Source of the DNA: Pirellulaceae bacterium
GTDB lineage: Bacteria > Planctomycetota > Planctomycetia > Pirellulales > Pirellulaceae
Direction: 5' to 3'
Assembly: GCA_040219575.1 (NCBI GenBank)
Contig: JAVJSD010000014.1
Location: 66,120 to 130,119, forward strand
DNA: 64,000 nt
The position numbers were made by a program, and so were the translations under genes. Under the pieces are notes generated by a model that was not told the origin of the DNA, did not search any database, and was given only the letters and a program-made list of their open reading frames with translations. Below, piece after piece: positions 7,530 to 56,489 of the stretch. The stretch's first letter is position 1. The number at the start of each line of letters is the position of its first letter.

Positions 7530-7666
7530 GGTGGGATACAGGGGGAGGGAGACGTCTCCCCAGTATAGGAAGATCCGCCGCCGATTTCATCGATTCCCCG
7601 CCGTCGTTAGTGGGCCGTGCCGCCAGGGCCCTCACCTCCGGTCGTGTCGTCGAGTAAAATGGTGGT

Positions 7667-8338: not shown

Positions 8339-8361
8339 AAAGCGTGCTCTTTCGCGTCTTC

Positions 8362-8425
8362 GGTAGCGGAAGTCGTGAGACTTCCGAGGCGGCTTCGAAA
8401 AGTCGGAACTCTCACGAGTTCCGCG
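8362..8425 (+). repeat. REP-like double-hairpin element, copy A
   Basis: Sequence ggtagcggaagtcgtgagacttccga...ggaactctcacgagttccgc. Two 7-8 bp stems with 4-nt loops. Confidence 0.8.
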
Positions 8426-8448
8426 ACGCCGTGGCGTCGTGGCGCGGG

Positions 8449-9351: not shown

Positions 9352-9460
9352 GGGAGAAACCCGTCAGCAGGTGGGCGGAGGAATTGTTGCAGTCCAGGGC
9401 CGCTATTGTCGCTTGCCCGTGGACCGTGTTCAACTGGTTCGCCGCCGCTCCGGAAAGTCT

Positions 9461-9556
9461 GTAGCGGAAGTCGCCAAACTTCCGACTGACCGTCTGTAGC
9501 GGAATTCGTGAGACTTCCGAGATCGATCGAAGCATCGGAACTCTGGCGAGTTCCGC
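9461..9556 (+). repeat. REP-like element, copy B (1.5 tandem copies)
   Basis: Sequence gtagcggaagtcgccaaacttccga ... gtagcggaattcgtgagacttccga ... ggaactctggcgagttccgcc. Confidence 0.8.
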
Positions 9557-9568
9557 CACACGAGTATG

Positions 9569-34462: not shown

Positions 34463-36316
34463 CCCCTAACCAAGCGAAGTTTCTGAGCCTCATTGGTCGG
34501 TTTTACGAAAAAACTCGAAAACTCTCGGCGGTTCTTGGGTAACTCAGGAGTGTAAGGCTTCCGAGTCGCCAACGCATGGAGGGTTTTCGAGTGAAGATCA
34601 AGGTAAAGCGAAAGTTGGATCGTTGCAAGCGTCGCATTCAGCGACGCTTGGACAAGACGGATAATCGTGGTTGCGAACGGCCGATGTTCACGGCTTCGAA
34701 TATCCATTACGAGATCTCCGACCGCACACGGGGCATCTCGGCTGGAGGCATTGGTTTGATTCACCTCCTGGTGAAGCACGTCGGATTGGTGGAGGCGATT
34801 GACGAGCACCTGCAACTGCTCAAGTGCCATCTTCCCTACCACGAATCCGATCATGTGCTGAACATCGCCTACAACCTGTTGGCGGGCGGGACCTGTCTGG
34901 AGCACCTGGAATTGCGACGCCAGGATGAGGTTTATCTCGACGCCCTGGGCGCCCGGCGGATTCCGGATCCCACCACCGCCGGCGACTTCTGCCGCCGCTT
35001 CAGCAGCGTCGACGTGCTCGCGCTGCAGGAAGTCTTCAACGAGACGCGAATCAAGGTCTGGAAGCAGCAAGACGACGCGTTCTTCCAACGGGCCGTCATC
35101 GACGCCGACGGCACGATGGTCGAGACCACCGGCCAGTGCAAACAGGGCATCGACATCAATCACAAAGGCCAGTGGGGATATCACCCGCTGATCGTCTCCT
35201 TGGCCAACACGGGCGAGCCGTTGTACGTGGTCAATCGTCGCGGCAACCGGCCGAGTCACGAGGGCGCTCACTTCTACCTCGACCAGGCCGTCGGCCACTG
35301 CCGGGCCGCCGGCTTTCGCGAGATCCTGCTGCGCGGCGACACCGACTTCTCGCAGACCGAGCATCTCGACAAGTGGGACGACGACGGCGTGAAGTTCGTG
35401 TTCGGGATCGACGCCACGTCGAAACTGTACGAATTGGCCGAGCAATTGCCGCTCGACGCCTGGCGACGGCTCAAACGCGAGCAGCAGGAACCGCCCTCCA
35501 AACCGCGAGCCAAGCCGGACAACGTGAAGCAGGAGATCGTCGAGCAACGCGAGTTCAACAACATCCGCACGGTCCGCGAGTACGTCGCCGAGTTCGACTA
35601 TCAACCGCACGCCTGCCGCAAGAAGTACCGCATCGTCGTGGTCTGGAAAGACCTGGAGGAGTCTCAAGGGCAAAAGAAGTTGTTCGACTACACGCGCTGC
35701 TTCTTCTACATCACCAACCTGCGGGAGCCGCCGGCGACGGTGGTCAAGGAAGCCAACGGCCGCTGCAACCAGGAGAACCACATCCAGCAATACAAACACG
35801 GCGTGCCGGCGCTGACGGCCCCGCTGGACAACCTGGTCAGCAACTGGGCCTACATGGTGATGGCGTGCCTCGCCTGGAGCCTGAAGGCCTGGGCGGCGTT
35901 GCTGCTTCCGGAGCATCCGCGTTGGCAGGAGAAGCACCGTCAAGAAAAGCAGACGCTGCTGCGAATGGACTTCGCCACCTTCCGCAATGCGTTGTTGAAC
36001 ATCCCCGCGCAAATCGTTCACACAAGCCGCCGCATCATCTACCGGCTGCTTGCGTGGAATCCCTGGCAAGACGTGTTCTTTCGCTTGCTGGATCAACTCG
36101 CCCTACCGCTACGATGCTGACGCATGCAACACGTGAAGTCGGAGTCTGGATGCTCCGATACCGCCGCCACGCCGAACCTTGAAACGCACGACCATGAGGA
36201 CACGACAACCCGATTCCCACCCCGCAGCCGCCGGCCGCGCCGCTAAAACTGCGCACCCCCGACTACACGAAAAACTAGCGAAAAAGCGTCGGGGGCTTCA
36301 CTTGATTTAGGCCTAG
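34459..36316 (+). mobile_element. IS1380-family insertion sequence (ends approximate)
   Basis: DDE transposase with the IS1380-type C-terminal block (GRCNQENHIQQYKHGVPAL). Candidate imperfect terminal inverted repeats ctagcccctaaccaagcgaag (34459) and cttcacttgatttaggcctag (ending 36316) match at 16 of 21 positions. The left end coincides with the stop codon of the SPFH gene. Confidence 0.6.
34576..36120 (+). CDS. IS1380-family DDE transposase
   Basis: 514 aa. Characteristic IS1380 motifs. Confidence 0.85.
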   Translation: MEGFRVKIKVKRKLDRCKRRIQRRLDKTDNRGCERPMFTASNIHYEISDRTRGISAGGIGLIHLLVKHVGLVEAIDEHLQLLKCHLPYHESDHVLNIAYNLLAGGTCLEHLELRRQDEVYLDALGARRIPDPTTAGDFCRRFSSVDVLALQEVFNETRIKVWKQQDDAFFQRAVIDADGTMVETTGQCKQGIDINHKGQWGYHPLIVSLANTGEPLYVVNRRGNRPSHEGAHFYLDQAVGHCRAAGFREILLRGDTDFSQTEHLDKWDDDGVKFVFGIDATSKLYELAEQLPLDAWRRLKREQQEPPSKPRAKPDNVKQEIVEQREFNNIRTVREYVAEFDYQPHACRKKYRIVVVWKDLEESQGQKKLFDYTRCFFYITNLREPPATVVKEANGRCNQENHIQQYKHGVPALTAPLDNLVSNWAYMVMACLAWSLKAWAALLLPEHPRWQEKHRQEKQTLLRMDFATFRNALLNIPAQIVHTSRRIIYRLLAWNPWQDVFFRLLDQLALPLRC

Positions 36317-36553
36317 ATTTGTCCAGACAGCGGCAGCCTGTGCGTGCGTTTGAAAGTAGTCTCGATCCTCCACAGAGATCGCGACATTATTGCCAGCAAG
36401 ATTTCGCAGGTAAGCCTTCACTCCACCCAATCCACCACTCCCGCCAGATGCTGCCATTTGGACGTTCAGATTGTGGTATTGGATAACGAGATTATCTAAC
36501 ACCCGATTATCAAGGCTGTTGTTGTTTCCTTCACAGACGAGATAGACGGACAT
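36275..36553 (-). CDS. mini-Toprim protein (DUF4435/OLD-like core; possibly C-terminally truncated by the IS)
   Basis: Toprim Glu in VYLVCEGNN and DxD in SVEDRDY. The last ~13 codons lie inside the candidate IS1380 right end. It overlaps the stop of the upstream ATPase. Confidence 0.45.
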   Translation of the reverse strand: MSVYLVCEGNNNSLDNRVLDNLVIQYHNLNVQMAASGGSGGLGGVKAYLRNLAGNNVAISVEDRDYFQTHAQAAAVWTNLGLNQVKPPTLFR

Positions 36554-37659
36554 TACTGTGGTCCCTCGGAACTCAGGTCATCCAAGCTTCCGAGGTCGAC
36601 GACAGAATCCGGGCGAACTGCATCACGCAGATATGGCGAATGGGTCGTGGCGATTATCTGATTGCCGTCACCCATTTGTGGAACAAGATGTAAGAGCTTT
36701 CGTTGCCATATGGGATGTTGATTGAGTTCTATTTCGTCGATCAGCACAATTGACTGGTGCATATGCTCAGCGACAAATCGAATCAGCAACAACAGCACCA
36801 TCTGTTCTCCGCTACTTAATCCGCTGTATGAGTATTCGTCACACCCATTACTAAAGAGGATGTCCAGCCCACCTCGATCGTCATCGCGGATTGGACCGAC
36901 GATTTCGTGCGGAGCGCAGACTCGTGAGTATCGTTGCTTGATTCGGTCAAAATCACTCACTTGCTGATCGCGATACGGCGGCACCAAAGATCGGACTGCC
37001 AGATCAAGGAGAATGGTTTTGGGATCACTCGTTCTTCGATCCTTCGTTCCCGTAGGCATCGTCCCGTGAATGATGTTCCAGACCCTTCGGGATACTGTCT
37101 TGGCGAATGCCGTACGCTGCTGATCGAAGGTGAAGACGCCTCCCACTTTCTCAAACCAATCCCAACCGACCCGTCGCGTCGAAAGCAAACGGGCGATCCG
37201 ATACCGCCCCTTTAGCAGGGTCCAGCCGAGGCCAGGTTCGCACGTGCTGTAGCCATGCTCCGAACGCCCCTCGGGATCCGGGTACTCCCAGGTCAGTGCA
37301 ACTTCCTGAGCGTTAGGCACTTCGTGCGGCAACTCGGCCAAATCAAATACGTGACGGACTGCTTCAATCTCGTCCGTCGTGAATCGAAGCCAACACGTAA
37401 CCTTGGCGTGCAAAGCCCCTCGACGCACCACTGCCCAAGGAGCCCGCACAAAGTGCCGTCGCAGCGTTGGCATTTGCAGGGTGGGGCCAATTGCGGCAGC
37501 AATTGCGTCGAGGATAGTCGTCTTCCCGCAGGTGTTGGGGCCGACCAAAAGAGAGAATTCGCGCACCCTACCCATGGCGTCGGTGAAATCCAACACGAGC
37601 GGTTGGCCCTCTCCTCCGAGATGACGAAAATTCTCAATTTGCACTCTTGCAAGCTTCAT
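36553..37659 (-). CDS. compact ABC-type ATPase (AAA_15/AAA_21-like, RecF/SMC-head-like)
   Basis: Walker A (GPNTCGKTT), ABC signature (SSGEQ), Walker B/D-loop (IVLIDEIELNQHP) and H-loop (IATTHSP). GC content is visibly lower than the backbone. Confidence 0.75.
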   Translation of the reverse strand: MKLARVQIENFRHLGGEGQPLVLDFTDAMGRVREFSLLVGPNTCGKTTILDAIAAAIGPTLQMPTLRRHFVRAPWAVVRRGALHAKVTCWLRFTTDEIEAVRHVFDLAELPHEVPNAQEVALTWEYPDPEGRSEHGYSTCEPGLGWTLLKGRYRIARLLSTRRVGWDWFEKVGGVFTFDQQRTAFAKTVSRRVWNIIHGTMPTGTKDRRTSDPKTILLDLAVRSLVPPYRDQQVSDFDRIKQRYSRVCAPHEIVGPIRDDDRGGLDILFSNGCDEYSYSGLSSGEQMVLLLLIRFVAEHMHQSIVLIDEIELNQHPIWQRKLLHLVPQMGDGNQIIATTHSPYLRDAVRPDSVVDLGSLDDLSSEGPQ

Positions 37660-38060
37660 GTTCCGCTCTCGGTTCCATGAAAAACATTCCATCCGAACAG
37701 TGTTTCCGACCATTCAGATTATCGACGTGGTACACCGGCACTGCAAGTTCGGTTTTGGAATCGCCGGCACGCTCAGGGCACATAGGCACGGCTCGGAAAG
37801 TCAACCGAGCGCCGACGTTACGAGCCTGCTGCCAATTCGGAGCATTGCCTTTTTCGGCAGTCCGACTAGCTAGTTCCAGTCTTACTCAGACAGCCATGCC
37901 ACGGCCGACGTTCACTCGGCACGAATGCTTGTCGGTTTGGTTAGCTGTCGGATGGGCAAATCGGCGGGTGTGAACCAGCCGGTCGAAACTATGCCGACTT
38001 TGAGCGGCGAAGAACGCCGGATTACTTGCTTCTGGCCCCCAGGATGGGTAGATTCGGCGG

Positions 38061-39268: not shown

Positions 39269-39355
39269 ATGCAATCCTTGTCGATGGACTTGCGGGAGCG
39301 GGTAATTGCGGCGTACGACAGGGGCGATCGACGAAGACGAAGAACCGATCGCTGA
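39269..39355 (+). pseudogene. IS630/Tc1-family transposase N-terminal stub (28 codons)
   Basis: MQSLSMDLRERVIAAYDRG matches the conserved HTH N-terminus of IS630-family transposases, then runs into RRRRRTDR and a stop. AAGGAGA Shine-Dalgarno site upstream. Confidence 0.5.
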
Positions 39356-39390: not shown

Positions 39391-40755
39391 TCACAGATAG
39401 CGACCAGTCAAGTAGTCGATGTATGCCTCGTGTCCGTCACGATGCTTCGAGAAACATTCTATAACGTCCTGGAAGGTCAGTGCGCGAAACGCGAGTCCGT
39501 CCCGACTGACAATCTCGCGAAATCTGTCGACTTCTTCACCGTGTCGCTTTGCCGCCGCACTGCCTGGAACATCATACCAGAGGTAAACGAGGACAAATCT
39601 GCCCAGACTGTTTCGGTGTTTCAGTCCCAGTGTGTGCTTTAGTAGTTGGGCAGCATGCAGGTGGACGAATACGTCATCACGCGGGCAAATCCGTTGGCCT
39701 AGCTCACGACAATTCGGAAGCTCTATCCAGAGATGTTCTTCCCGGAGGTAAGCAGGAGCCAACCCTTTCTCGCTTGGCTCGCTGGTACGGTACACCTCCG
39801 TGAACTTACACTCGAATGCTAAATCGGGCAGTTCATTTGAATCGGCGAATGCGATCGTGACGTCCAAGTTCGGATCCCTGGGGAAATGCTCGCGGTTTGG
39901 AGAGTCCATGATCGGACGCTTTGCCTCAAACTCGATCGACTTGACTGAACCCTCCGACAAACCGAACGCCTGTAGAAGTGGATCGCAGTCCTCTTGGCCG
40001 CGCCAGTAGTCGAAGAGGTTGACGGTTAAGGCGGAAGACGAATGTACTGCTTGCATTTTTGCTGGTCCGTCTTCCGTCGTGAGTTCATCGCCATCACCCT
40101 CCTCGAACTCTTGCCGAGTTTCAAGTGACATTGGCTGGAACAGGTTATCCTCGATAGTAGGGGTGTATGCAGGATCGCCTCGGCCACCTTTGCTGCCGAT
40201 CAACTTTAGCCCATATTTCCCGGCCCATTTCTTTTGGCGTTCCTTGCAATTGTGGAAGGCTTGATCGCTTTCTGTGCGACGCGCAAAAGCTTCATCTAAG
40301 TTAGGAATATCATCATCACACACTCCTGCTGCCTTCCAAATGATGCCGAAGAATCCTTCAAAGCTTACAAACGTGGGGCGATTTTGCATAAACAGCGTTC
40401 CCGTCAATCCCTCATGTCGTCCGGCCGCCAGCTCCCTATTCATCCTGACCACACGTTGGGAGCATTCCGTAAATGACCGCTTGGCGACACCGTCGAGTTC
40501 CTCCAGCCAACGCGCCAACGGAACCTCTCCATCGAATAGCACAATCTGACGTACGTTTCTGTTCGTACGAATCAGGTCTCGTATAGGGTCGGTGATGTGA
40601 CGCATCACCTCCGTCTGTTCATCCAGTAGGAATTTCCGTTTCGCCTGCATCGAGCAATAACGAGAAACCGCTCGATTAAGGTCTGTTCCATACCGCTCCA
40701 CCTCGTAGACGCTGTCAGGCGCACAAATGTGATAATAGGCGCTGGAAAAAATCAT
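39391..40755 (-). CDS. hypothetical protein with C-terminal PD-(D/E)xK-like nuclease motif
   Basis: C-terminal DVTIAFADSNELPDLAFECKFTE (D ... E-x-K). N-terminal ~250 aa unrecognised. Low GC. The start is taken at the internal ATG at 40755. Confidence 0.4.
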   Translation of the reverse strand: MIFSSAYYHICAPDSVYEVERYGTDLNRAVSRYCSMQAKRKFLLDEQTEVMRHITDPIRDLIRTNRNVRQIVLFDGEVPLARWLEELDGVAKRSFTECSQRVVRMNRELAAGRHEGLTGTLFMQNRPTFVSFEGFFGIIWKAAGVCDDDIPNLDEAFARRTESDQAFHNCKERQKKWAGKYGLKLIGSKGGRGDPAYTPTIEDNLFQPMSLETRQEFEEGDGDELTTEDGPAKMQAVHSSSALTVNLFDYWRGQEDCDPLLQAFGLSEGSVKSIEFEAKRPIMDSPNREHFPRDPNLDVTIAFADSNELPDLAFECKFTEVYRTSEPSEKGLAPAYLREEHLWIELPNCRELGQRICPRDDVFVHLHAAQLLKHTLGLKHRNSLGRFVLVYLWYDVPGSAAAKRHGEEVDRFREIVSRDGLAFRALTFQDVIECFSKHRDGHEAYIDYLTGRYL

Positions 40756-40922
40756 CGTCTGCCTTCCTCGTGCTTGAGTAAATGTTCGACGATCTTCGAC
40801 AATGAAAGTGGATAAGAATACCCGTCGAGCTGCGAGATATGGTAGTGCGGCGGTTGCACATGGCCCTGAATCGTAATTGTAGCCAGTCACCGAATGAATC
40901 GTGAACGACAGGAACATGCGGA

Positions 40923-41666
40923 TCACCGAGGCTTCTTCGACCGAAGACCTCCAGTCTCCGGTGATCCCGCTTTCGCCGGCGGCGGCGGGTAGCATATCGG
41001 CCCCCAATCTTCGTCTGAACCGTGGTCGATCCACACCAGCAGGAACGCCGGCAACAAACGCTGCATCATCGTCACGCAGCGCCGGAGCGAAGTACGGTTC
41101 AGCTTGCCGCCGTACGTCGCCGCCCCGTGAACGAGCTGGCAGCGCATTAGATAGATGCGGTCCAGCACGTGGTCCAGGATCATGGTCCAGCGATGTTCGG
41201 TGTACCAGTTGCCGGCTTTGTACTTGCTTCTCCGCGACTGGCCGGCCCACTCTGCCGACGGCTCCTGCCAGAAGAACTTGCTGAGGTGTTTGTCCTCCAG
41301 CAGCGTCATCACGAGCCGCTTGTGATCGGTGAGCGCCCCCGACACGTACTCCGACCGATCGAGTCGGAGGATCGCATCGACGAATGCCCGCCAGGTCTCT
41401 CGGTCCGGCTTCGGTTCCTGCCGCTGTTCATCCCATTGACCGTACAATGAATTGAACGCGATCCAGAGACTGATCAGGTCGAGGTCGAGGTCGTGGTCTT
41501 CGGCGCCGGCACCATCCTCGGTGCGGGCGAGCCAGCTGCATGCCCGATGAAAGCGGATACAAGTTGTCTGCTCGCCGCCTTTTGCCAGCAGACGCTCCTT
41601 GTGCGGCTTCCACCGGCGCCGGAGCAGGTGGACCGTCCATTCGCCCGTCGCAGAGGTCTCTTGCAT
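40923..41666 (-). CDS. hypothetical protein with HEPN-like R-x4-6-H motif
   Basis: RCQLVHG near the C-terminus, predicted alpha-helical. Directly upstream of and co-directional with the PD-(D/E)xK-like gene. Confidence 0.35.
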   Translation of the reverse strand: MQETSATGEWTVHLLRRRWKPHKERLLAKGGEQTTCIRFHRACSWLARTEDGAGAEDHDLDLDLISLWIAFNSLYGQWDEQRQEPKPDRETWRAFVDAILRLDRSEYVSGALTDHKRLVMTLLEDKHLSKFFWQEPSAEWAGQSRRSKYKAGNWYTEHRWTMILDHVLDRIYLMRCQLVHGAATYGGKLNRTSLRRCVTMMQRLLPAFLLVWIDHGSDEDWGPICYPPPPAKAGSPETGGLRSKKPR

Positions 41667-43511: not shown

Positions 43512-43943
43512 GTGAATCGCATCCTGATCGACACAAACGCATTTGTCGCCGCGGCTTACAACCCTGAGTCGGCAAGCCGGAAGATCGTGCGGGCTGTAGA
43601 GCGCGGCGAACTCAAGTTGATCGTCAGCCCGGAAATCGTCCGGGAGTACAAGGCGATCCTGCCCAAGGCCGTTCGTTCCGGCGAAGCGCGGGACTGGCTT
43701 TGGCAGGTCATCGAGATGGCGGAGCGTGTCACGCTGGCGGAGAATCCGCCCGTGACCGAGGATCGCGCCGACGACAAGTTCCTGGCTGCGGCGGTGGCCG
43801 GCGTAGCCGATGCAATTGTCAGCAGCGACCAGCACCTGCTGGACGTTCATCCCTACGCGGGAATTGACATCCTGCGCCCGACGGAGTTCTGGGACCGGTT
43901 CTCCACCGACAGTGATGAATCAGGACCGTCCGGCCCGGTGTGA
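43512..43943 (+). CDS. PIN-domain protein (VapC-like), no obvious cognate antitoxin
   Basis: ILIDTNAF N-terminal PIN motif and later acidic residues. GTG start. Confidence 0.6.
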   Translation: MNRILIDTNAFVAAAYNPESASRKIVRAVERGELKLIVSPEIVREYKAILPKAVRSGEARDWLWQVIEMAERVTLAENPPVTEDRADDKFLAAAVAGVADAIVSSDQHLLDVHPYAGIDILRPTEFWDRFSTDSDESGPSGPV

Positions 43944-44534: not shown

Positions 44535-47500
44535 TTATTGGGAGAGTTGCTTCGTCAAGGACCACACGTTGCCAACTCGATGTTCTAGCAAAGCGTCCCA
44601 GGCGTCGAGACAACGTCGCCGGACATGCAATCGTTCTGAGCCTTCCGCTTGTTCGTAAAGTCGAAGAAGAAGTGGACTGATTTCTTCGCCTGCATAGGAC
44701 ATAGGACGAGTGCCTTTGACTTCGAGGGAATCTAGCTCGCCACATAGGTTTTTGCATGCGTCAAAAATCACGTCAGAAAAAGGGACTAACGATTCTGGAT
44801 GTTGTTCCAGTGCGCGCAAGAGCTGCTCCGGTCTATCGCGGAAAGCCGACGAAATGGCGAGTTTATGTAAGAAAGGAGCGGTCTCGGGAAACCGGAGAAG
44901 CTGATCGACTCGAAACATGGCCTGTCGGCGAACTTGCTCTTCTGAGTCATCAAAATAGCGAGCTAACAGCGTGCGGCACGGTTCCGAGTAATCGAGCGTC
45001 GTGACAAGCTGTGCCGCTGCTTTGGCAACGCCCTTGCGTTGAGGTACAGAGCCTCCACAGCATCTTTTCACTTCCTCGTCAAATAGCCCAAAGAACACCC
45101 ATCGGGCTGCCATTTCGGCCGCGGCTACCTCGGCTACGTCCTCATGTGGCGAGGCGGCCATGCGGCGTATTAACGGACAGAGCACGTGGGCATACGCAGG
45201 AAAGGCAAAATTGAATACTCGACACGCATCACGACAGGCGCCTACTCGATCCTCACTCGCGGCTCGCACCAGCCAATGTACGGCAGAATCACGCTCCAGA
45301 TTCCAGACGGGCAAACAAATCCCAACGGCCGCGAGGCGGACAACTGGATGTGGATCCTCAAGGAGTCGTTCGATTTCCGGACGAAACCGGTCTAACAAAT
45401 CTGGCCTTCGGAAGAGAATCGCTGCGATCGCATGTGCAGCAAGTCCTCTGACGCAATTGATCGCGTTGTGCTCCAGCACTTGAACGCTGCATTGCGATGC
45501 CCGCTGGTTGCAGTGAACATGTAGCGTGTCGCCATCTGGATCACAGTGATCGACAAGGTCGGCTAAGCGATGAACTATTTTCTCCGACACTTCGATGTCG
45601 TCTCGATGCACAATAATAGTGCAGAAGGCGCAGCATAGTTCAGCCTCGGCACTCCTCGGTATATGCTCCAAGACTGCCTGTACACTCGTCGCCGAGGCCG
45701 GTGACCAATCTGCTCGGCGATCATCACGGACCTCGGATGGCGGCGATTGCACATGCAAGCTTTGCATTATTGCGGCAAGGTAATCAGGCGGCACGGCATC
45801 AGGTAGCCTTAGAGCTAGTCGGGAAAACCGCTCCGGCTCGCGAAGCGCGGCCGTACGAAGGTCGCGCGCGAACATCTCAACCGAAGTCTCAATGACTGTA
45901 CCTTGTCTGTAGGAGTGGCCCCACCTCGCAGCGCCACGACGGGGAATGTCGCCGTTGGTGATAAGCGATAGCCAAGCGGTGTCGCTCAAATGGTCAACCA
46001 TTCGCAGGTCGATCGGAGAGCGGACTCCGCCACCTTGTGGCTTCGGACGGCAGAAGAACTCTTCACTTTCGTGGGAAAATTTTTCAGCCAGCACTCCGAT
46101 TCGACCGACAGTCTCCGTCGATCGCCGCGTCGCATCGAGAGCAGGCAACAAGAAATACTGGGCAGCTCCAAACTTATTACGGAAGTCGCCGTCGCGTGTT
46201 TCCTCCAACCACCACCGCGCAAGTCGCTTTTCCTCTGGATCACGGAACGCATGAACCGCTGTTTCCAGTTCCGCGAATACTTCATCGGAGCAGTGTGGAG
46301 ACTGTTTAGCGATGAGGCACGTTGCTGGATTCCATTTCGGATGCCGAACTCCAGCGCCACACTGAAATCGCCTTTTGTCGTCAAGTAACCACCGAACCGC
46401 GATGTCGGCGAAAGCCGGCGGAAGCGCAGCATGGCATGATACGAGTACCTCTTGAATTATGCGAGAGCGTCTTCCATCTAGTTCATCGGCGACGCGAAGG
46501 AAGGTTTCAGGCGCTCGACGAGCGATTTCGCGTCCGGCTGCGCGCAGGGCGGAAATCAAGAGACGCGGAATGTGAATTCGATCCTCCCACGGTTTAAACT
46601 CGCGGCGTTTCCGCTCATTGGCGCGCTGCCTACGACGCTCGATGAGAAGTCGTATCAATTCCGCACTCAGTAGTCGCCACGTCAATCTTGGAACTCGGCG
46701 CGCTGCACGGCCAACAGCACGCCAATCAGGCGAGCCTACGGTCCCAAGAGGCAATGAGCTGGAGAACATGCGAGACTTCACGTCCGGCACTTTTGACAAG
46801 CAAGTGGCAAACATCCGAATTGCACGTGCAGGATTGTTCTCAGCGATCTTGCTCCACGGAAAGTGGTCCGGAAGGGCTCCTTGTCGCGCACAATCCAGTC
46901 GCAATCTAAACATCACGTCTGGTTCGCCGTGTGGCTCAGATCTGACAAGCGTCCGTTCGATCTGGCGCGCCCACTCTTCGCCTCTTCTCAAGAGTGGTCG
47001 GCAGATGCTGGCCACTAATTCTGGGCACCGGTCGGCTACCGAGCGGACAAGCATCAGGGCGTCGTTCTCCTGCTCCGCATTTCCCGAGTCCAACCAGTCA
47101 TGGAGGAGCCCAGTCTTACCGAAAGCAGTGACGTATCGTGACTCACCGCGGACAACGAGCGATAGAATAAGGTCCCGCCATACGCAGTCGCGCACCAGAG
47201 CGAGGACCAGCGCTTCCGTGGTGTCCGTCGGAGATACTTGGCTTAGTGCTTCAAGAGCTAACTGCTTGATATGAAATCGGACTTCGCTATCGGACAATAG
47301 TTCGTTTATCCCACTCACAAATCGTGCGGGGTCTTCGTCGGCAATTAAGAACAACAGCTGTCGGAGTTGTTCGCGTCGAAAGAGCGATTGTCGATCCCGC
47401 TCGCCGAGCCACTCAAGAACCGAGCATCCACCAATCAAGACGGTGCCGGCAGCACGGTCGGCAATTAGGAAATCCAGATAGCACTGATGGCAAAAAGTCA

Positions 47501-49172
47501 CCTTCCGACGACTTACTTGAATAACACCAAGAGTTTGCAGTTCTGTTGTGGCTTTCTCCTGTCGCTCGATAAGTTGCGCTGGCGCGGTCAGTTCAGCATG
47601 CTCTTCCATGTAGCGGACAAGCGTGTCGAGTAGCGCGTCCCGTTCCGTGGCAGTGATCCCCGCTTTTTCAACTTCGATACGGCGATTACGCCAAAACTCG
47701 CGCATCAGCCCTGTGGCTGAATCGAAATCCGGCGAAGGCTCTCCAGCTAGGACGATTTCTGACCACATGGCAAGGTTTTGCACTGTGCGCAACAGTGAAC
47801 GCCGCGTTGGCGTCAATCGGCCCGGATCAAGCCCGCAGAGTTCGACAGTTTCCTTTACTGCGAGGTCTGGCAATTCTTGAACCTCGACTTCCTGAACCTG
47901 GTCCGCCTTCCTACCACGAAGCCACTGGCGGATTTGCGGATCGTTGTTGAGATCGAATGTTCGGCAGGAAATGAGTACACTGAGTTTACAACCAAGCTGT
48001 CGCAAACTTTTGACCTCCCGGAGGAGCGATTTGCAGACGCCAAGTCCTTCCGCAGAATGTGCACCGGTCCAGCGAAGCGCATCGAGTTGATCAAGGATCA
48101 ACACTCCACGACCGCTCGCCGCAAGCTGTTGCAGACATACTACCGGGGAATCGGGCAGCCCTAAGTCGATGCCGAACTGGCGAGCGTGGCCACGCGCCGA
48201 TTTTCGATCCAGTCGAATTGGGATAAAGGGAGTTCCCATCTCGGTCAAGCGTTCAGCAACTGCGTAGAGAACACCGCTTTTCCCACGGCCTGCCGCCCCA
48301 TGCAGAATGACGATCTCCGGCGCATCGTCAGCATTCAACTCGTCAATAATCGCTTCTGTTTCCGACCTGGGAATAAGCCGACCCGCTGCCAGTTTCGGTC
48401 GAATCGAATCAAGGAAGTCTTGGCAGAGTTCGTTGACTTGGAGATAGATGCGATTGTCGGCGGTTAGCCGTCGTACCTGCATTTCTTTACTTTGGACGTG
48501 CTGGAACACTTCCAAGGCGGTGAGGGTCTTACGAAGGTTGTTTTCGGCGAAGTCCGCGAGGACTGCAATTACAACGTCGGGATTTGCGGCAACTGATGTT
48601 TCGGCCATGAAGCGTAGGTCGTCATTAGCGTGCCGGTCGTCGCAGGCAAGATGCACATGGGTGCGACGAAGGAAGTCAAAGGCTTCCGCACGGCCATCGG
48701 ACGTGTGCGCATCAAGCATCAGACTGCGACACAGGTCCTGGAATGCGTCACGCCGCTTCTTCCCCAAAGCGTTGATTTGATGCTGTACAAAGCTCTCCGC
48801 ATCACCAGAAGAGTCGCGGGCACTCTGGGAAATATCGCGAAGTTCGCTTGCGGGAACTGCCGAGACTAAAGCGAAATCGTGGTTAGAGCTACGGTTAAGA
48901 TGGGCCTTCGCAGATCCAAGGACTCCTCGCTGGTCAAGGTCGGCAAGTGACCAGTTGCTCTTGCTGCGGTTGCGTGCCTTGCACTGCTGGGCTTCGCGAC
49001 GCCCATCATTCCTTTCAACCCAGAGATCAACTCCGGCTTCATCGTCTCCAATTGCTTCAATAGTTATGGACCGAAGCCGTTCGTGCAGCAACAGCAGAAG
49101 CTGTCGCACTACCCAACGTCCCTCGTATCGGTTTCCCAACTTGTCAGCATAACCGCCGGGCTCAAAGGCCAT
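44535..49172 (-). CDS. Avs-like antiviral STAND NTPase with N-terminal Mrr-like PD-(D/E)xK nuclease domain
   Basis: N-terminal Mrr_cat-like pattern (YEGRWVVRQLLLL ... IGDDEAGVDLWVE ... EAQQCK). Walker A (HGAAGRGKSG) about 290 aa in, and Walker B (VLILDQLDAL). About 1000 aa of helical-repeat sensor-like C-terminus. AGGGGA Shine-Dalgarno site upstream. Lower GC. Confidence 0.7.
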   Translation of the reverse strand: MAFEPGGYADKLGNRYEGRWVVRQLLLLLHERLRSITIEAIGDDEAGVDLWVERNDGRREAQQCKARNRSKSNWSLADLDQRGVLGSAKAHLNRSSNHDFALVSAVPASELRDISQSARDSSGDAESFVQHQINALGKKRRDAFQDLCRSLMLDAHTSDGRAEAFDFLRRTHVHLACDDRHANDDLRFMAETSVAANPDVVIAVLADFAENNLRKTLTALEVFQHVQSKEMQVRRLTADNRIYLQVNELCQDFLDSIRPKLAAGRLIPRSETEAIIDELNADDAPEIVILHGAAGRGKSGVLYAVAERLTEMGTPFIPIRLDRKSARGHARQFGIDLGLPDSPVVCLQQLAASGRGVLILDQLDALRWTGAHSAEGLGVCKSLLREVKSLRQLGCKLSVLISCRTFDLNNDPQIRQWLRGRKADQVQEVEVQELPDLAVKETVELCGLDPGRLTPTRRSLLRTVQNLAMWSEIVLAGEPSPDFDSATGLMREFWRNRRIEVEKAGITATERDALLDTLVRYMEEHAELTAPAQLIERQEKATTELQTLGVIQVSRRKVTFCHQCYLDFLIADRAAGTVLIGGCSVLEWLGERDRQSLFRREQLRQLLFLIADEDPARFVSGINELLSDSEVRFHIKQLALEALSQVSPTDTTEALVLALVRDCVWRDLILSLVVRGESRYVTAFGKTGLLHDWLDSGNAEQENDALMLVRSVADRCPELVASICRPLLRRGEEWARQIERTLVRSEPHGEPDVMFRLRLDCARQGALPDHFPWSKIAENNPARAIRMFATCLSKVPDVKSRMFSSSLPLGTVGSPDWRAVGRAARRVPRLTWRLLSAELIRLLIERRRQRANERKRREFKPWEDRIHIPRLLISALRAAGREIARRAPETFLRVADELDGRRSRIIQEVLVSCHAALPPAFADIAVRWLLDDKRRFQCGAGVRHPKWNPATCLIAKQSPHCSDEVFAELETAVHAFRDPEEKRLARWWLEETRDGDFRNKFGAAQYFLLPALDATRRSTETVGRIGVLAEKFSHESEEFFCRPKPQGGGVRSPIDLRMVDHLSDTAWLSLITNGDIPRRGAARWGHSYRQGTVIETSVEMFARDLRTAALREPERFSRLALRLPDAVPPDYLAAIMQSLHVQSPPSEVRDDRRADWSPASATSVQAVLEHIPRSAEAELCCAFCTIIVHRDDIEVSEKIVHRLADLVDHCDPDGDTLHVHCNQRASQCSVQVLEHNAINCVRGLAAHAIAAILFRRPDLLDRFRPEIERLLEDPHPVVRLAAVGICLPVWNLERDSAVHWLVRAASEDRVGACRDACRVFNFAFPAYAHVLCPLIRRMAASPHEDVAEVAAAEMAARWVFFGLFDEEVKRCCGGSVPQRKGVAKAAAQLVTTLDYSEPCRTLLARYFDDSEEQVRRQAMFRVDQLLRFPETAPFLHKLAISSAFRDRPEQLLRALEQHPESLVPFSDVIFDACKNLCGELDSLEVKGTRPMSYAGEEISPLLLRLYEQAEGSERLHVRRRCLDAWDALLEHRVGNVWSLTKQLSQ

Positions 49173-49385: not shown

Positions 49386-50423
49386 TCAAATCGCAAACGG
49401 CTTGGCCGTCTGCCACTTGTTGTCGGCGAGCCACTTCTTCGTGGCCGGCAGCGAGGCGTACACGATCCGCTCGCCGTCGCGAATCACCTGGCCGGTGAAC
49501 CGACCGGGCTGGACCGTCTCGATCGACAAGCCGGCGGTGGACTCGTCACAGGTGAGCATCAACTGCTCGTCAAGCAGGTCGCGCACCGTCGCCCTGGCTC
49601 GCTCGTCTTCCTGGCGGGCGATCTCGGCGATCACCGATTCCAGTTCGTCGAGCGAACCGATGTCGTCCGGCAGCGGCGTACGCGATGCCGGCACTGCGGC
49701 GCGCTCGCCCTTGAGTTGCGCGACGCGAATCGCCAGCGACCCGTAGCACTCACGGATCAAGCACGGCCACACGCTCCGCCAGTAGGCATGGGACGGAGCA
49801 CGCTCGACACCGACTACCTGGTCGTCGACCAGGATGATCGCGCCGATCTGTCGCGGCACGCACTCGAATTCGGCGACGAACTCGTCCAGCTCCTTCTGGA
49901 AGTGCTTGAGGAAGAACTCCAAGTGGCCAGCGGCCTGGAGTCCCATCTCCCGGTTGAACAGCGAAATGGCTTCCCACAGCTTGTTGAAGCTCGTCTCCTG
50001 CCGGACCTCCAGCGCTCGCTCCCGCAGCGCGTACGGGAGAATCAGCATCCGGTACGATCCGCGCTGGATGAAGCCGCCCTGCGACTGCTGGATGCACATC
50101 GCCGTGTCGAACGACCGCTGGCCGGCCGATCGAACCACGCCGGCATGCGCCATGGCGTGGTCCTGAGCGGCCTGCTTGACGACGTAGCCGGCGTGGCACG
50201 GGACGATCAGCACACAGTCACCCGGGTTGCGGAATCCAAGCGTTCCGTAGCTCGTCGTGAACACCTCGGCCTCGCCCTCGACGGGCGAGACGAAGCGATC
50301 GTCGGAAAGCTCACTCACCAGCGGAATGACCTGCATGTAGCCGACGCTCTGGATGCGGCCCGGCGTGCAGCCGTGCAGCACGTCAGCCACGCGGATCGTC
50401 TTCTGTCGGTTACGAAACACCAT
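49386..50423 (-). CDS. hypothetical protein, upstream partner of a vWA gene (14-bp overlap)
   Basis: 345 aa. No family recognised by eye. Translationally coupled to the vWA gene. Confidence 0.5.
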   Translation of the reverse strand: MVFRNRQKTIRVADVLHGCTPGRIQSVGYMQVIPLVSELSDDRFVSPVEGEAEVFTTSYGTLGFRNPGDCVLIVPCHAGYVVKQAAQDHAMAHAGVVRSAGQRSFDTAMCIQQSQGGFIQRGSYRMLILPYALRERALEVRQETSFNKLWEAISLFNREMGLQAAGHLEFFLKHFQKELDEFVAEFECVPRQIGAIILVDDQVVGVERAPSHAYWRSVWPCLIRECYGSLAIRVAQLKGERAAVPASRTPLPDDIGSLDELESVIAEIARQEDERARATVRDLLDEQLMLTCDESTAGLSIETVQPGRFTGQVIRDGERIVYASLPATKKWLADNKWQTAKPFAI

Positions 50424-51147
50424 GCTTCACCTCCTCGATGCGTCGCACATCCCGCTTACCTTCCATCGCCGGACGAACCATGCCCAACAACGCCGCTGCG
50501 CCACGGTCTACATCGGCCTCGAACAGCACCTTCAGCAGGCCCAGTCCGATCGCTTCCGGCTTGTTCACCGGCAGGCCCGCCACACTCTCGCTGAGCACGC
50601 GGATACCTCGGGCCTCTGCCGCAAACACGGGCGAGAACTGGTGGAACGGCGTCTCGACGCCCATCCGCCGCACCGCCCGCACCACTTCGGCAAAGCGCCC
50701 GGCCGGCGCGTTCTCGTAGCCGTCTGTAAGCACGAACACCACGTCGGGCTCGCGCTTCAGCAGCGCCACGAGACCGGCAGCCAGCGACGTGTCGCCGGCC
50801 GGCTCGATCAACTCGGCCGCCGGAGCCGCACGTCCGTCGTTCGTCACGATCGTCACCCGCTCGGCCGTCTCGGCCAGCAGGTCACGCAAGGCCAGAGCGA
50901 CCGAGATCGGTCGCCGCGCCTGCGTTTCGTGCCCGAACATCGACGCCGAAACGTCCAGCAGGATGCCGGCGTGCTCGAAACGCACCAGCAGCCTCTGAGC
51001 CGTCGCCTGCGCCTTGCGCAGCAGCTCGTGGATCTGGTCGCGATTCCTTGACGCGCTGGTGAACGGCAAGTTTCGGACCTGCCTCGATGATTGCAGGAAA
51101 CGAGCCGGCGTCCGGCCGGTCATAGCGGTCTTGATTGGGCCGTGCAC
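50410..51147 (-). CDS. von Willebrand factor type A (vWA) domain protein
   Basis: MIDAS D-x-S-x-S (LLDVSASMFG), followed by Thr and Asp-Gly blocks (VFVLTDGYEN). Confidence 0.65.
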   Translation of the reverse strand: MHGPIKTAMTGRTPARFLQSSRQVRNLPFTSASRNRDQIHELLRKAQATAQRLLVRFEHAGILLDVSASMFGHETQARRPISVALALRDLLAETAERVTIVTNDGRAAPAAELIEPAGDTSLAAGLVALLKREPDVVFVLTDGYENAPAGRFAEVVRAVRRMGVETPFHQFSPVFAAEARGIRVLSESVAGLPVNKPEAIGLGLLKVLFEADVDRGAAALLGMVRPAMEGKRDVRRIEEVKHGVS

Positions 51148-52142: not shown

Positions 52143-52346
52143 TATCTCGCAGCAGCAAGACACCGACCGGTTTCCGCTCGGTGTCCTTTTCTATCCGAAG
52201 CCATGCGAGGCGACGCGTCGTTCAAATATCTAGTGAACGGGTGTCACCGTGGACAGCATCTGTCCAACCAACACCTTATCATTGGGCATTGCTTTCGTTT
52301 CACCTGTGTTTGTGAACACTCATCCATTCATCCTCTCCGGCGACCG

Positions 52347-53396
52347 ATGGAACCTAGCTCTCCGCTCCTCCGCCAATGGATGCTGCTCAAGCTACTCGCG
52401 GCGACGACGCAGGGACGCGCCGTCCGGGAGCTGGCTGACGAAATGAGTGTCAGCGAGAAAACCATCCGCCGCGATCTCGCCGTGCTGACCGACGCCGGGT
52501 TCCCCATCGAAGACAAAACCGGCGAGTTCGGCCGCAAGGCCTGGCGTATCGCCCCATCGTGGAGTCCGTCCCAGATGGCATTCACCTTTGACGAAGCTCT
52601 CGCGCTCTACCTCGGCCGCCAGTTTCTCGAACCGCTCGCCGGCACGTTGTTCTGGCAGTCCGCCCAGCGGGCGATGAACAAAATCCGTGCCACGCTGACG
52701 CCCTCCGCCCTCCGCTATGTTGATCGGGCCGCCGAGGTCCTCTACCACACGGCCTTCGGCGCCAGCGATTACTCCCGCAAGGCCGATTTGATCGACGCAC
52801 TAATGGTCGCCATCGAAGACCGCCATGCTGTGTTCCTGACCTACCGCTCGCAACGCGCCACGGAACCCGTCACCTACGACGCTTACCCCTACGGGCTCAC
52901 CTACCATCGAGGTTCCCTGTATCTGGTAGGCCGGGCGCCGCAACACGACGAAATCCGACACTGGAAGGTCGATCGCATCGAAGTGGTCGAGCCGGCCGAA
53001 CTGCAATTCTCTCGGCCGTCTGGTTTTAATCTCCGCCGCCATTTCGCCGACTCGTTCGGCATTTGGGACGGCCGCGGTCGCATCGCCGTCAGAATCCGCT
53101 TCTCGGCAGACGTTGCCCGCTACGTCGAGGAATCCACCTGGCACGCGAGCCAAAAGCTGCAACGTCAACACGACGGCACGCTGATCGCCACCTTTCGGCT
53201 CTCCGCCATCGAAGAGATCAAGTCCTGGATCCTCAGCTTCGGACGCCACGCCGACGTGCTTGGGCCGCCAGAGCTGCGTGAGGAGATTGCGACGGAATTG
53301 CAGACGCTACTGATGAGATACACCTCGACACTGGAACCGCAACTCGACGAACCAACCGACCATATAAGTCGAAGGCACCGGCCATCGAAACGCTGA
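52347..53396 (+). CDS. HTH + WYL-domain transcriptional regulator
   Basis: N-terminal HTH (LRQWMLLKLLAATTQGRAVRELADEMSVSEKTIRRDLAVL) and a WYL-like core (VTYDAYPYGLTYHRGSLYLVGRAPQHDEIRHWKVDRI). It lies immediately upstream of cas6. Confidence 0.75.
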   Translation: MEPSSPLLRQWMLLKLLAATTQGRAVRELADEMSVSEKTIRRDLAVLTDAGFPIEDKTGEFGRKAWRIAPSWSPSQMAFTFDEALALYLGRQFLEPLAGTLFWQSAQRAMNKIRATLTPSALRYVDRAAEVLYHTAFGASDYSRKADLIDALMVAIEDRHAVFLTYRSQRATEPVTYDAYPYGLTYHRGSLYLVGRAPQHDEIRHWKVDRIEVVEPAELQFSRPSGFNLRRHFADSFGIWDGRGRIAVRIRFSADVARYVEESTWHASQKLQRQHDGTLIATFRLSAIEEIKSWILSFGRHADVLGPPELREEIATELQTLLMRYTSTLEPQLDEPTDHISRRHRPSKR

Positions 53397-53529: not shown

Positions 53530-54156
53530 ATGCACATCGATCTTTCGTTTCGTCTCATTGGTCAGAGTACGATTCCCTCCGATCACGGCTACCACCTCTA
53601 CGCCGCGGTCTCTCGGGTTTCGTCGCAGGCGCACGAGCCGAACGGTATCGGCGTCCATCCGATACGCGGTCGACAAATCGGCGATCGGCAGATCCAGCTC
53701 ACCGATTTCAGCCGCCTGACCATCCGCACCGAAGCCGACCACATTTCTCGCTGGCTTCCGCTTGCCGGCAAGCAACTGAACGTCGGCGGCCGCCCAATTC
53801 GCGTGGGTGTACCGGAAGTCCGCAGTCTCACGCCAACCGTCGCGCTCCGCAGCCGGCTCGTCACTATCAAGGTCTCTTCTGTCCGTGGCGAGTCACCTGC
53901 CCCACCCGACGCAGAGAGTTTCCGCGCTGCCGCTCTCCGTCAACTCGCCTCGCTTGGTATTTCCGACGCGGCCTCGCTTACGCTTGGCAAGCGCCGCACG
54001 CTGCGCATCAAGGACAAAGAAGTAGTCGGATACGAAGTACTCGTCTCCGAACTCACCGTCGAAGATTCGCTGGTCCTTCAAGAGCGCGGCCTCGGCGGTC
54101 GCCGCCATATGGGCTGCGGGATCTTTGTACCGGTCAACAAGCGAGAGGAGGCGTGA
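53530..54156 (+). CDS. cas6: CRISPR endoribonuclease Cas6
   Basis: Glycine-rich C-terminal loop GLGGRRHMGCGIF and Cas6-like size. First gene of the cas operon. Confidence 0.8.
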   Translation: MHIDLSFRLIGQSTIPSDHGYHLYAAVSRVSSQAHEPNGIGVHPIRGRQIGDRQIQLTDFSRLTIRTEADHISRWLPLAGKQLNVGGRPIRVGVPEVRSLTPTVALRSRLVTIKVSSVRGESPAPPDAESFRAAALRQLASLGISDAASLTLGKRRTLRIKDKEVVGYEVLVSELTVEDSLVLQERGLGGRRHMGCGIFVPVNKREEA

Positions 54157-56489
54157 TGGACGTCAATCGATTGTGGGCGAAGAGCAAGCCGTACGGATGG
54201 GACGACGACGACCCACGAGTCGAGTCGCTCTACCTTCCGCAGCATCTACGCGACGTTCACGACGCCGCCAGCCAAATCCTCGAAACGACGGGAGATTCAC
54301 AGCTTCAATCGCTCGGCCTGGCCCCGAGACTTTGGCGAGACCGATTCCGACGCGTATTGCTTCTCGCCGCGGCCGTTCACGATCTCGGCAAATGTGGAAG
54401 TCACTTTCAACTTATGCTGAAGGGTCAAGGGCGCCAAGCATTGCGGCACGAGTGGGTCAGTTTATTGATTCTGGACACTCCAGGTTGGACGAGTTGGCTC
54501 GTCTCCGCCGTGGATGGTGAAGCGATCGACTTAGAGATTGTCCGTTGGGCCGTAGCGGGCCATCATCCCAGATACGATCGAACAGCCCCGCCGACATCAA
54601 ACGACGGGCCTGCCACGCTTCATCTACCACTGGATCACCAAGATATCTCCGAAACGCTCAAATGGCTGGGTAGTACGTTCTCCCTTCACGGGACGCCTTC
54701 GCAGGAACCACGCACCGTTTCCCTGACGTTTGATCCCGGCAACGCCATCGATGCGCTCGCTGATCGACACTACGCTGCTGAAGACTTGTTTGACGACTTT
54801 TCGTCCGAAATGCGTCGATTTGTCGCTGCCGTCAAGAATAGCCTTGTCTCCGCCGACATCGCGGGCTCAGCGTTGCCGCGGCTAGCGGATGCTCAAGCGA
54901 AGCGGCACTGGCTCCGTGACGTACTCAACCAGGAAGGTCTGCCGACGTCCAACGACTACCGACGAATTACGGCCATGCGACTCGGCCGCTGCGAGCCAGC
55001 GGCAGTCGAAGGGAAACTCCGTCGATTTCAGAAAGAAGTAGGCGCGTCGCCGGCCCGAGTGACCTTCGTTCGGGCTGGTTGCGGAACCGGAAAGACTATC
55101 GCTGCGTATTGGTGGGCAGCCAACGTCTGCGCTGGCCGGCGATTGTTCGTCTGCTATCCGACCACAGGCACGGCGACCGCCGGCTTCGCCGACTATCTGA
55201 TGGATCCGGAACTTTCCCAAGCGGTGAAGACCGACCTGATTCACGGTCGCCGTATAGTTGACTTTCGCATGCTGCAGGCAGACGAGGATCGCAATGAGTC
55301 TGTGTCGCGCATCGCATCACTCGACATGTGGCGGACGCCGGTCGTCTCCAGCACCGTCGATACGGTGCTCGGTCTCATCCAAAATAACCGTCGCGGCCTG
55401 TGCAATTGGCCCGCCATCGCACAAGCAGGATTCGTCTTTGACGAAATCCACAGCTACGACGACAAGCTGTTCGACGCCCTGCTTCACTTTCTCGCGACCA
55501 TTCGTGGTGCGCCGATCTTGCTGATGACCGCCAGCCTACAGGTTCGTCGACTGGAGGCGATTCGATCGGTGCTTGCGGCGGCCGACGACCCACTTGCCGA
55601 GATTCCCGGGCCAGAGACGCTGGAAAGAGTTCCGCGGTATCAGCAGCGCCGCGACGTCAAAGCCAAGGACACGAAGCAAATCGACGCGATGATCCATGAG
55701 GAGGTCTCGCAGGGTGGAAAAGCTTTGTACGTTTGCAACACGGTGACCGATGCATTGCGAACAGCAGATCGGCTTGCGAAGTTGAAGCCCTTTGTCTACC
55801 ACAGTCGCTTTCGCTATCGCGATCGCGTTGAACGACACAAGAGCGTTGTCGAGGCGTTTCGACGCAAAAGCAAGTCTTCCGCCTTGGCGATTTGCACCCA
55901 AGTAGCGGAGATGTCCCTTGACCTCTCCGCGACACTCCTCGTGACCGCATTGGCGCCTGTGCCGTCGTTGATTCAGCGGCTTGGGCGCTTGAATCGTATC
56001 GAAAGGCCGGTGGAGCCACGACCATTCGTCATCGTCGAACCCCTCGGCGCCGATGGCAAGTACTCTCCACTTCCATACGAAGAAGGCGACTTGAAATCGA
56101 GCAAGAGTTGGCTTGAGGCAATCGGTGATGAACCTTGTTCTCAGCGCGACTTGGCCGACGCATGGGAGCGCCTCGCGGAAGGCGATTCGCCGTGTGCTCC
56201 GCCGCGTTGGCAGAGCGCATGGCTAGACTATGGGCCAGCTACTCCCGTCCTCGAACTTCGTGACGGATCACCCACACTTACGGTCATTCTCGAGGAAGAC
56301 TGGCCCCGGCTCTGCTCCCCCGACAATGCGACCGCATTGGCCGAGGTCGCCCTGCCCATGCCCATCCGCCCCGGCGACGACTGGCAGCTAAGAGATCGTG
56401 AAGACCGGCCACTGGAGTTCGCCGGAGTACCGGTCGCCAAGGCGGACAAGATCGACTATGACCCTCAACGAGGTGCGCAATGGCTGTAG
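54153..56489 (+). CDS. cas3: Cas3 (HD nuclease fused to DExH helicase)
   Basis: N-terminal HD motif (AAAVHDLGK), Walker A (GCGTGKT), DEIH box (FVFDEIH), and a helicase C-terminal domain. Confidence 0.9.
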   Translation: MMDVNRLWAKSKPYGWDDDDPRVESLYLPQHLRDVHDAASQILETTGDSQLQSLGLAPRLWRDRFRRVLLLAAAVHDLGKCGSHFQLMLKGQGRQALRHEWVSLLILDTPGWTSWLVSAVDGEAIDLEIVRWAVAGHHPRYDRTAPPTSNDGPATLHLPLDHQDISETLKWLGSTFSLHGTPSQEPRTVSLTFDPGNAIDALADRHYAAEDLFDDFSSEMRRFVAAVKNSLVSADIAGSALPRLADAQAKRHWLRDVLNQEGLPTSNDYRRITAMRLGRCEPAAVEGKLRRFQKEVGASPARVTFVRAGCGTGKTIAAYWWAANVCAGRRLFVCYPTTGTATAGFADYLMDPELSQAVKTDLIHGRRIVDFRMLQADEDRNESVSRIASLDMWRTPVVSSTVDTVLGLIQNNRRGLCNWPAIAQAGFVFDEIHSYDDKLFDALLHFLATIRGAPILLMTASLQVRRLEAIRSVLAAADDPLAEIPGPETLERVPRYQQRRDVKAKDTKQIDAMIHEEVSQGGKALYVCNTVTDALRTADRLAKLKPFVYHSRFRYRDRVERHKSVVEAFRRKSKSSALAICTQVAEMSLDLSATLLVTALAPVPSLIQRLGRLNRIERPVEPRPFVIVEPLGADGKYSPLPYEEGDLKSSKSWLEAIGDEPCSQRDLADAWERLAEGDSPCAPPRWQSAWLDYGPATPVLELRDGSPTLTVILEEDWPRLCSPDNATALAEVALPMPIRPGDDWQLRDREDRPLEFAGVPVAKADKIDYDPQRGAQWL

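Follow-up and report, generated by a model that had tools for sequence, protein, structure and literature searches.

Here, we report that two adjacent genes, A and B, in a 64,000-nucleotide (nt) stretch of DNA from a Pirellulaceae bacterium (the window) probably lie side by side through chance stacking and form no new two-gene system. Gene A (the upstream open reading frame, ORF; 247 amino acids, aa) very probably encodes a HEPN-fold protein. Gene B (the downstream ORF; 454 aa) is, judged by its sequence, a REase-ARP endonuclease with an intact predicted active site. An earlier note on this stretch had presented the two as a candidate novel pair of a HEPN protein and a nuclease. Both of the co-directional ORFs that it had called are present on the minus strand with unchanged coordinates; the pairing itself did not survive comparison with related loci. 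The layout of the genes is as follows.

40923..41666, minus strand: gene A, 247 aa, ATG start
39391..40755, minus strand: gene B, 454 aa, ATG start with AGGAAGG upstream
40756..40922, minus strand: A-B spacer, 167 nt, GC content 0.50, compositionally part of the block of B
~39100..~40920, no strand assigned: low-GC block of about 1.8 kb, GC content ~0.44 to 0.59 in 100-nt windows

Co-occurrence was assessed from both sides, in 83 loci with an A homologue (flanks of at most 8 kb; in 80 of them, one flank or both reach 2 kb or more) and in 89 loci with a B homologue. No B homologue was found near an A homologue in any of the 83 sampled A loci, and no A homologue near a B homologue in any of the 89 sampled B loci. 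The sole other instance of A beside B (L173) was the same sequence in a different assembly. All-against-all clustering of the flanking ORFs from the sampled loci returned no universal partner for either family. With no co-occurrence in 172 loci approached from both sides and with a discordant base composition of the two genes, the reading of A and B as a pair fails. Conservation of the genomic neighborhood, which the earlier note had named as a check on its proposal, was thus absent, and the claim of a novel pair is largely refuted.

In base composition, A (GC content, 0.625; GC content at third codon positions [GC3], 0.778) is native, like the window (0.617) and its ordinary genes, whereas B has a GC content of 0.523 and a GC3 of 0.558; the two genes had been described together as low-GC, which holds for B and not for A. 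In 100-nt windows, the GC content steps sharply to 0.60 to 0.65 at the stop codon of A. From the discordant GC and GC3 of A and B, we infer that B arrived separately, and the low-GC block is likely an acquired insertion that carries B beside a resident A. For the start of B, an in-frame ATG at 40917 would give a product of 508 aa; the sole recorded gene call is that of 454 aa (P0121, identical). No minus-strand terminator-like site was predicted in the A-B spacer, and one promoter-like site was found there (40905-40876), at a frequency expected by chance. The search around the two genes for an RNA antitoxin, repeats, and terminators gave no Rfam match and trivial tandem repeats only, with promoter and terminator counts at chance. 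At its end remote from A, the low-GC block holds one short ORF fragment.

39269..39355, plus strand: short ORF fragment MQSLSMDLRERVIAAYDRGD...

We take this fragment to resemble the N terminus of an IS630-type transposase, which no tool confirmed. It had no Pfam match and no tblastn match in plasmids, and neither a second copy of the stub region nor a significant peptide match was found elsewhere in the window.

The assignment of B rests on a curated family, and three features of the protein are used below.

39394..40263, minus strand: REase-ARP (PF22558) PD-(D/E)xK nuclease domain, B residues ~165 to 454
39805..39864, minus strand: D298...E315-C-K317, catalytic core of B, invariant in 38 family members
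40345..40755, minus strand: orphan N-terminal extension, B residues 1 to 137, helical low-confidence model (predicted local distance difference test score, pLDDT, 30 to 60)

The C-terminal ~290 aa of B match Pfam REase-ARP (PF22558) at 56.8 bits (gathering cut-off, 27; E value, 3.6e-15) and also match PDDEXK_13 at 2.2e-6. By itself, the pattern D-x(8-25)-E-x-K occurs at chance, being present in 72% of shuffled versions of B; the motif (contained in DVTIAFADSNELPDLAFECKFTE, B residues 298 to 320) is credible because it is invariant in the family and because B matches the Pfam model. The residues that are invariant in 38 REase-ARP members (D298, E315, K317, E277, Q370, and H238-S-S) are all kept by B, as are the invariant blocks GDGxE, HSS, FE, PNxD, ExKF, and LHAAQLxKH, and the catalytic residues of a PD-(D/E)xK nuclease are thus conserved. 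The nuclease motif that had been read at the C terminus of B was borne out, and the protein, which had been left without a named family, belongs to a curated one. The B profile had no meaningful match in the PDB. B would be a Mg-dependent DNase that acts alone.

The N-terminal part of B stands apart from the family. An unrecognized region of ~250 aa had been claimed; it is shorter, at ~140 to 165 aa, as the REase-ARP domain begins at about residue 165 and the nearest relative (P0122) aligns with B from residue 138 onward only. This extension is not common to any other member of the family. Most B relatives are stand-alone proteins of 287 aa, and a few have other N-terminal domains (HIT, or a second nuclease-like domain). 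The N-terminal 174 aa had no match at an E value of ≤10 among 5.8 billion proteins, in a search that missed even the identical P0121 and is weaker for it. The extension may be specific to the lineage and serve in sensing or targeting, or it may simply have no function. Two further ideas about the family were rejected: that REase-ARP is mainly viral (4 loci only were on viral contigs), and that B is a hidden relative of a PDDEXK_1 domain fused to an ADP-ribosylglycohydrolase in locus L006 (hhalign probability, 0.1). Among the annotated neighbors at 34.5 to 49 kb of the window, no DNA methyltransferase, the cognate partner expected beside the endonuclease in a type II restriction-modification (R-M) system, was found near B; a methylase-like neighbor was present in 5 of the 89 B-family loci (read from sequence, not via Pfam).

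Protein A was placed in the HEPN superfamily by one motif together with its fold.

41124..41144, minus strand: R175-C-Q-L-V-H180-G181, predicted HEPN catalytic motif of A, by family conservation

The HEPN catalytic motif is R-x4-6-H, in which the R is usually followed by a polar residue (Anantharaman et al. 2013, PMC3710099). In A, RCQLVHG occupies residues 175 to 181. The pattern R-x4-H is present in 64% of shuffled versions of A, which is chance level, and the motif is credible through its conservation across the family and not through its mere presence. In a close alignment (A1), R175, C176, Q177, H180, and G181 were all invariant; in a wide alignment of 54 sequences reaching down to 27% identity (A2), R175 was kept in 52/54, Q177 in 51/54, H180 in 48/54, and G181 in 54/54, with N (20), C (19), or S (5) at position 176. 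The family thus has a conserved R-x4-6-H with a polar N, C, or S after the R. The AlphaFold model of A is all-helical (pLDDT, 83), and its core was judged to be an all-alpha up-down bundle matching solved HEPN domains. The best match of the family profile among solved structures was the C-terminal HEPN domain of Ec3ApeA (9hxj), a weak one (E value, 0.3), in which the alignment is co-linear: the WIAxxxL helix and the R-x4-H helix follow in the same order, and the motif of A stands opposite RTRNNIVH. Foldseek found no significant match to the A model in the PDB. The earlier description of A as a HEPN-like protein carrying RCQLVHG is therefore well founded, and we hold the HEPN fold of A to be highly probable. 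By analogy, A would dimerize, and R175 and H180 would drive metal-independent RNA cleavage once activated.

Curated models do not cover this family: A had no match in Pfam, NCBIfam, PADLOC, or PHROGs, and no HEPN model reached its threshold. Among 54 relatives of A, 7 had sub-threshold Pfam matches (HEPN_RiboL-PSP in 5/54, best 4.4e-4; HEPN_Apea in 2/54), and some homologues are labeled "HEPN domain-containing protein" by NCBI. There are 595 close relatives of ~243 aa, mostly from Planctomycetota, and a protein identical to A is present in a Pirellulaceae metagenome-assembled genome (MAG). The wider family comprises 1,105 cluster representatives (exhaustive search at an E value of ≤1e-3; clusters at 50% identity). 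Conservation is unusually high, at 50 to 72% identity across planctomycete orders. Only 140 matches to A were confirmed in 185,579 species genomes, and several MAGs have more than one locus.

Three observations on A and A-like domains were made alongside. In P0248 (944 aa), an A-like HEPN domain is fused to a DEAD/DEAH helicase and an MrfA Zn-binding domain (MZB, DUF1998-type), and in P0330 (432 aa), such a domain follows a region that faintly resembles CARF/RtcR; both are predicted effector-style architectures of the A-like domain. A second R-x4-H-like string, RRWKPH, occupies residues 17 to 22 of A (41601-41618, minus strand), in a segment that is highly conserved, with L15, W19, K20, P21, and K23 invariant in close relatives.

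Two known HEPN systems were compared with A. ApeA is a single-protein HEPN defense that cleaves tRNA in the anticodon loop and is activated by deoxydinucleotides (bioRxiv 10.64898/2026.01.26.701840), with a beta-rich N-terminal domain of ~300 aa fused to HEPN_Apea (PMC3710099). The profile of A best matches the C-terminal HEPN domain of this system, weakly and below gathering scores, but A, at 247 aa and entirely helical, has no beta-rich N-terminal sensor of ~300 aa. In HEPN/MNT (HepT-MntA) systems, the partner is a nucleotidyltransferase antitoxin; none adjoins A in the window or recurs in the 83 A loci, and A is ~100 aa longer than the HEPN/MNT toxins, with a helical insertion.

The neighbors of A homologues are variable. 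Helicases and nucleases abound among them, as do ATPases of the SMC-like and MORC-like kinds, WYL regulators (in 10 A loci), and DUF1016 proteins, and ordinary metabolic genes (GMP synthase, FadL, and DUF1501) also adjoin some A homologues. ADP-ribosylglycohydrolase (ARG, PF03747) was present in 8 of the 83 A loci, from 8 different MAGs and two planctomycete classes, always on the same strand as the A homologue and within ~2 kb of it (<0.5 kb in most of the 8); tblastn found no ARG in the other 75. Six of the 10 closest relatives of A are among the ARG-bearing loci. In L175 (positions 7446-9735; the same locus as L005), ARG (314 aa), a rhodanese/protein tyrosine phosphatase-type phosphatase (189 aa), and an A-family HEPN protein (244 aa) form a tight operon, with a 4-nt overlap between ARG and phosphatase and a 45-nt gap between phosphatase and HEPN. 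In L176, a WYL gene, an ARPP-1 gene, ARG, and a HEPN gene lie within 5 kb. In L006 (2580-8735), an SNF2-like helicase of ~1,100 aa is followed by a 692-aa ARG-PDDEXK_1 fusion and, 20 nt downstream, by an A-family HEPN gene; this type of helicase recurs in 8 A loci.

The ARG-centric conflict systems predicted by Iyer et al. 2022 (PMC9503650) have ARG, uncoupled from any ART or sirtuin, as their core gene and combine it with a rhodanese phosphatase, a WYL or Nudix regulator, chaperones, ARPP, and variable restriction endonuclease (REase) and helicase effectors. The paper notes them in planctomycetes and proposes that they counter viral ADP-ribosylation; a HEPN effector is not mentioned in its main text, and the DefensePredictor paper describes no ARG+HEPN system. 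In relatives, the A-family protein is probably the executioner of an ARG-phosphatase operon; A itself would stand alone in this genome. Going by the names, REase-ARP would be the "previously unknown rapidly evolving REase" of the ARG-centric systems in that paper. Among the 89 B-family loci, tblastn detected no ARG or ARPP, the ARPPs being too divergent for reliable detection in this way.

The two families meet in one mobile-element cassette, in different loci.

L028 2625-11569 versus L177 320-11005 and L179: syntenic mobile-element cassette

In L177 and L179 (Gemmataceae), the gene order is DUF932, DUF6094, SNF2-like helicase, p173, PDDEXK_1, p103, p274, p85, REase-ARP, and WYL. In L028 (Lacipirellulaceae), DUF932, p173, PDDEXK_1, p274, and p85 are 52 to 72% identical to those of L177/L179, and p85 is followed by an A homologue in the slot of REase-ARP, with a WYL regulator further downstream. 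On this comparison of one locus on the A side (L028) with two on the B side (L177 and L179), the A and B families fill an equivalent slot, as expected of swappable effector cargo. A WYL regulator adjoins REase-ARP in L174 as well as in L177 and L179; in L174 (6001-12083), two REase-ARP paralogues (642 aa with a HIT domain, and 340 aa) precede an HTH-WYL-WCX regulator.

Elsewhere in the window, three genes recall the ARG-centric systems.

51147..50410, minus strand: vWA-like ORF, 244 aa, with a DVSASM motif resembling a metal ion-dependent adhesion site in its translation, no Pfam match, native GC content
50423..49386, minus strand: ARPP-1 protein, 345 aa (PF20208 at 9e-30, ARPP-2 at 2.7e-9), native GC content
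52203..53396, plus strand: helix-turn-helix (HTH)-WYL-WCX transcription factor (Pfam), divergent to ARPP-1 and ~1 kb away

The 244-aa ORF, a putative vWA protein, overlaps the start of the ARPP-1 gene. The WYL protein is 46 to 60% identical (tblastn) to WYL proteins beside A homologues in L034 (60%), L013, L054, L022, and L021. This vWA-like/ARPP-1/WYL group resembles the ARPP+WYL neighborhood of Iyer et al. 2022, without ARG. It does not adjoin A or B: vWA-ARPP-1 and WYL lie 8 to 10 kb off, with ARPP-1 at 8.6 kb. Although A relatives occur in ARG-centric neighborhoods of planctomycetes (L175 and L176) and the window has ARPP-1, the vWA-like ORF, and WYL, the defining ARG core gene and phosphatase are missing from it: tblastn found neither ARG nor a rhodanese phosphatase in the 64 kb, a profile hidden Markov model (HMM) built from six A-linked ARG copies found no ARG there, and no remnant of an ARG, phosphatase, or helicase gene of this kind was found in the window. 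For B, whose family name evokes ARPP, this means an ARPP-1 gene 8.6 kb off and no ARG or rhodanese phosphatase nearby.

Directly after the WYL gene, type I CRISPR-Cas genes begin (53530-58177, plus strand), for Cas6 (4.8e-59) and the 778-aa HD-helicase Cas3, together with an ORF of 565 aa that has no Pfam match; the WYL protein may regulate CRISPR-Cas (cas6/cas3) rather than ARPP. Between the A-B genes and ARPP-1 lie genes for a DUF427 protein (divergent, adjoining A), an FAD oxidoreductase, a PIN_3 protein, a cupin, and a 1,545-aa STAND NTPase. The PIN_3 protein (43521-43943, plus strand; 7.4e-20) had no antitoxin identified among its annotated neighbors. The 1,545-aa protein (44535-49172, minus strand; GC content, 0.554) has a weak nSTAND_NTPase5/AAA_22 P-loop and C-terminal HEAT-like repeats, is encoded on the same strand as ARPP-1, 213 nt further downstream, and is probably a foreign STAND-type defense NTPase. 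On the other side of A and B lie a gene with a beta-lactamase fold, two low-GC ORFs (36275-37713, minus strand), and, next to these two, a DDE transposase gene (DDE_Tnp_1_4; 34576-36120, plus strand). The two ORFs share one base: one encodes an ABC-type ATPase of 386 aa (AAA_15/AAA_21), and the other, of 92 aa, has no Pfam match. The ATPase and its small partner look like a two-gene defense module, the smaller member of which may be truncated. The region as a whole is mosaic, with native genes among foreign inserts of defense type.

Taken together, A and B are rather likely to be single-gene effector nucleases that work independently and are adjacent by chance in a variable, defense-rich stretch. 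A would be the resident, a member with native GC content of a large, unmodeled, mostly planctomycete HEPN family, and B would have joined later on the ~1.8-kb low-GC insertion with its orphan N-terminal extension. Neither gene would need the other, and both families would be interchangeable accessory effector cargo with a presumed role in defense; both occur near WYL regulators and helicases, and A also in operons of ARG and rhodanese phosphatase. Several points weigh against chance adjacency. Locus sampling was pattern-based, with up to 80 loci per scan, and rare A+B pairs may be missed. Both families may be tied to the same ARG/ARPP/WYL kind of system, in which case their adjacency may not be purely random. 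A and B run in the same direction across a gap of 167 nt in which no terminator was predicted, and they could be co-transcribed at this locus. The same layout would suit a dedicated two-gene abortive-infection or toxin-antitoxin-like module, in which a HEPN RNase works with a partner that is a nuclease or a sensor; HEPN proteins are frequently encoded among REase and R-M genes (PMC3710099), and the N-terminal extension of B could in principle be the sensor. Such a module is nonetheless very improbable, given the zero co-occurrence in 172 loci, the identity of L173, and the discordant GC and GC3; most relatives of A and B stand alone, the neighbors of A vary, and the N terminus of B is unconserved and poorly folded in the model.

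A looser connection, in which both genes belong as scattered effector arms to one ARG/ARPP-type system, is unlikely, though less so than the dedicated module. In this scheme, sensing or regulation would fall to vWA-ARPP-1 and WYL, and execution to the HEPN RNase and the REase-ARP DNase. The presence of ARPP-1 and WYL-WCX in the window speaks for it, as do the similarity of this WYL protein to those beside A homologues, the compact WYL/ARPP-1/ARG/HEPN group of L176, the REase-ARP genes adjoining WYL in L177, L179, and L174, and the system logic described in PMC9503650. Against it, ARG (by tblastn and HMM) and the rhodanese phosphatase (by tblastn) are absent from the 64-kb window, the supposed core is 8 to 10 kb off with unrelated genes intervening, the WYL gene directly precedes cas6/cas3 and may control CRISPR-Cas, and the foreign GC content of B argues for later joining. 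Housekeeping functions, with A as a planctomycete RNA-processing enzyme and B as a DNA repair or recombination nuclease (NucS-like), would fit the 50 to 72% identity of A across planctomycete orders and its occasional metabolic neighbors; they are very doubtful in view of the 140 A matches in 185,579 species genomes, the lack of conserved synteny, the frequent helicase, nuclease, WYL, and ARG neighbors, the mobile-element cassettes, and again the foreign composition of B.

What is new here is small in scale. B adds a new member, with a unique extension, to a curated family; A falls within the known HEPN superfamily, in a family without a public model; and the ARG-phosphatase-HEPN operons and the swap of HEPN and REase in one slot are small new observations. 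Beyond the independence of the two genes, we suggest tentatively that the A family may be an unmodeled HEPN effector of planctomycete ARG-centric systems, interchangeable with REase-ARP at the same slot and possibly ADP-ribose-gated (held off or switched on by ARG and phosphatase activity), in which case the window would hold both effectors stacked after loss of the ARG core.

The proposed two-gene defense system does not stand, which spares effort on a false pair. A sizeable HEPN family without a Pfam, NCBIfam, or PADLOC model recurs in ARG-phosphatase operons and adds a predicted RNase effector to systems that are themselves predicted only. The exchange of HEPN and REase in one slot beside WYL supports the view of nucleases as modular cargo. 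Should the link between ARG and HEPN prove functional, it would offer a handle on how ADP-ribose processing is coupled to effector activation.

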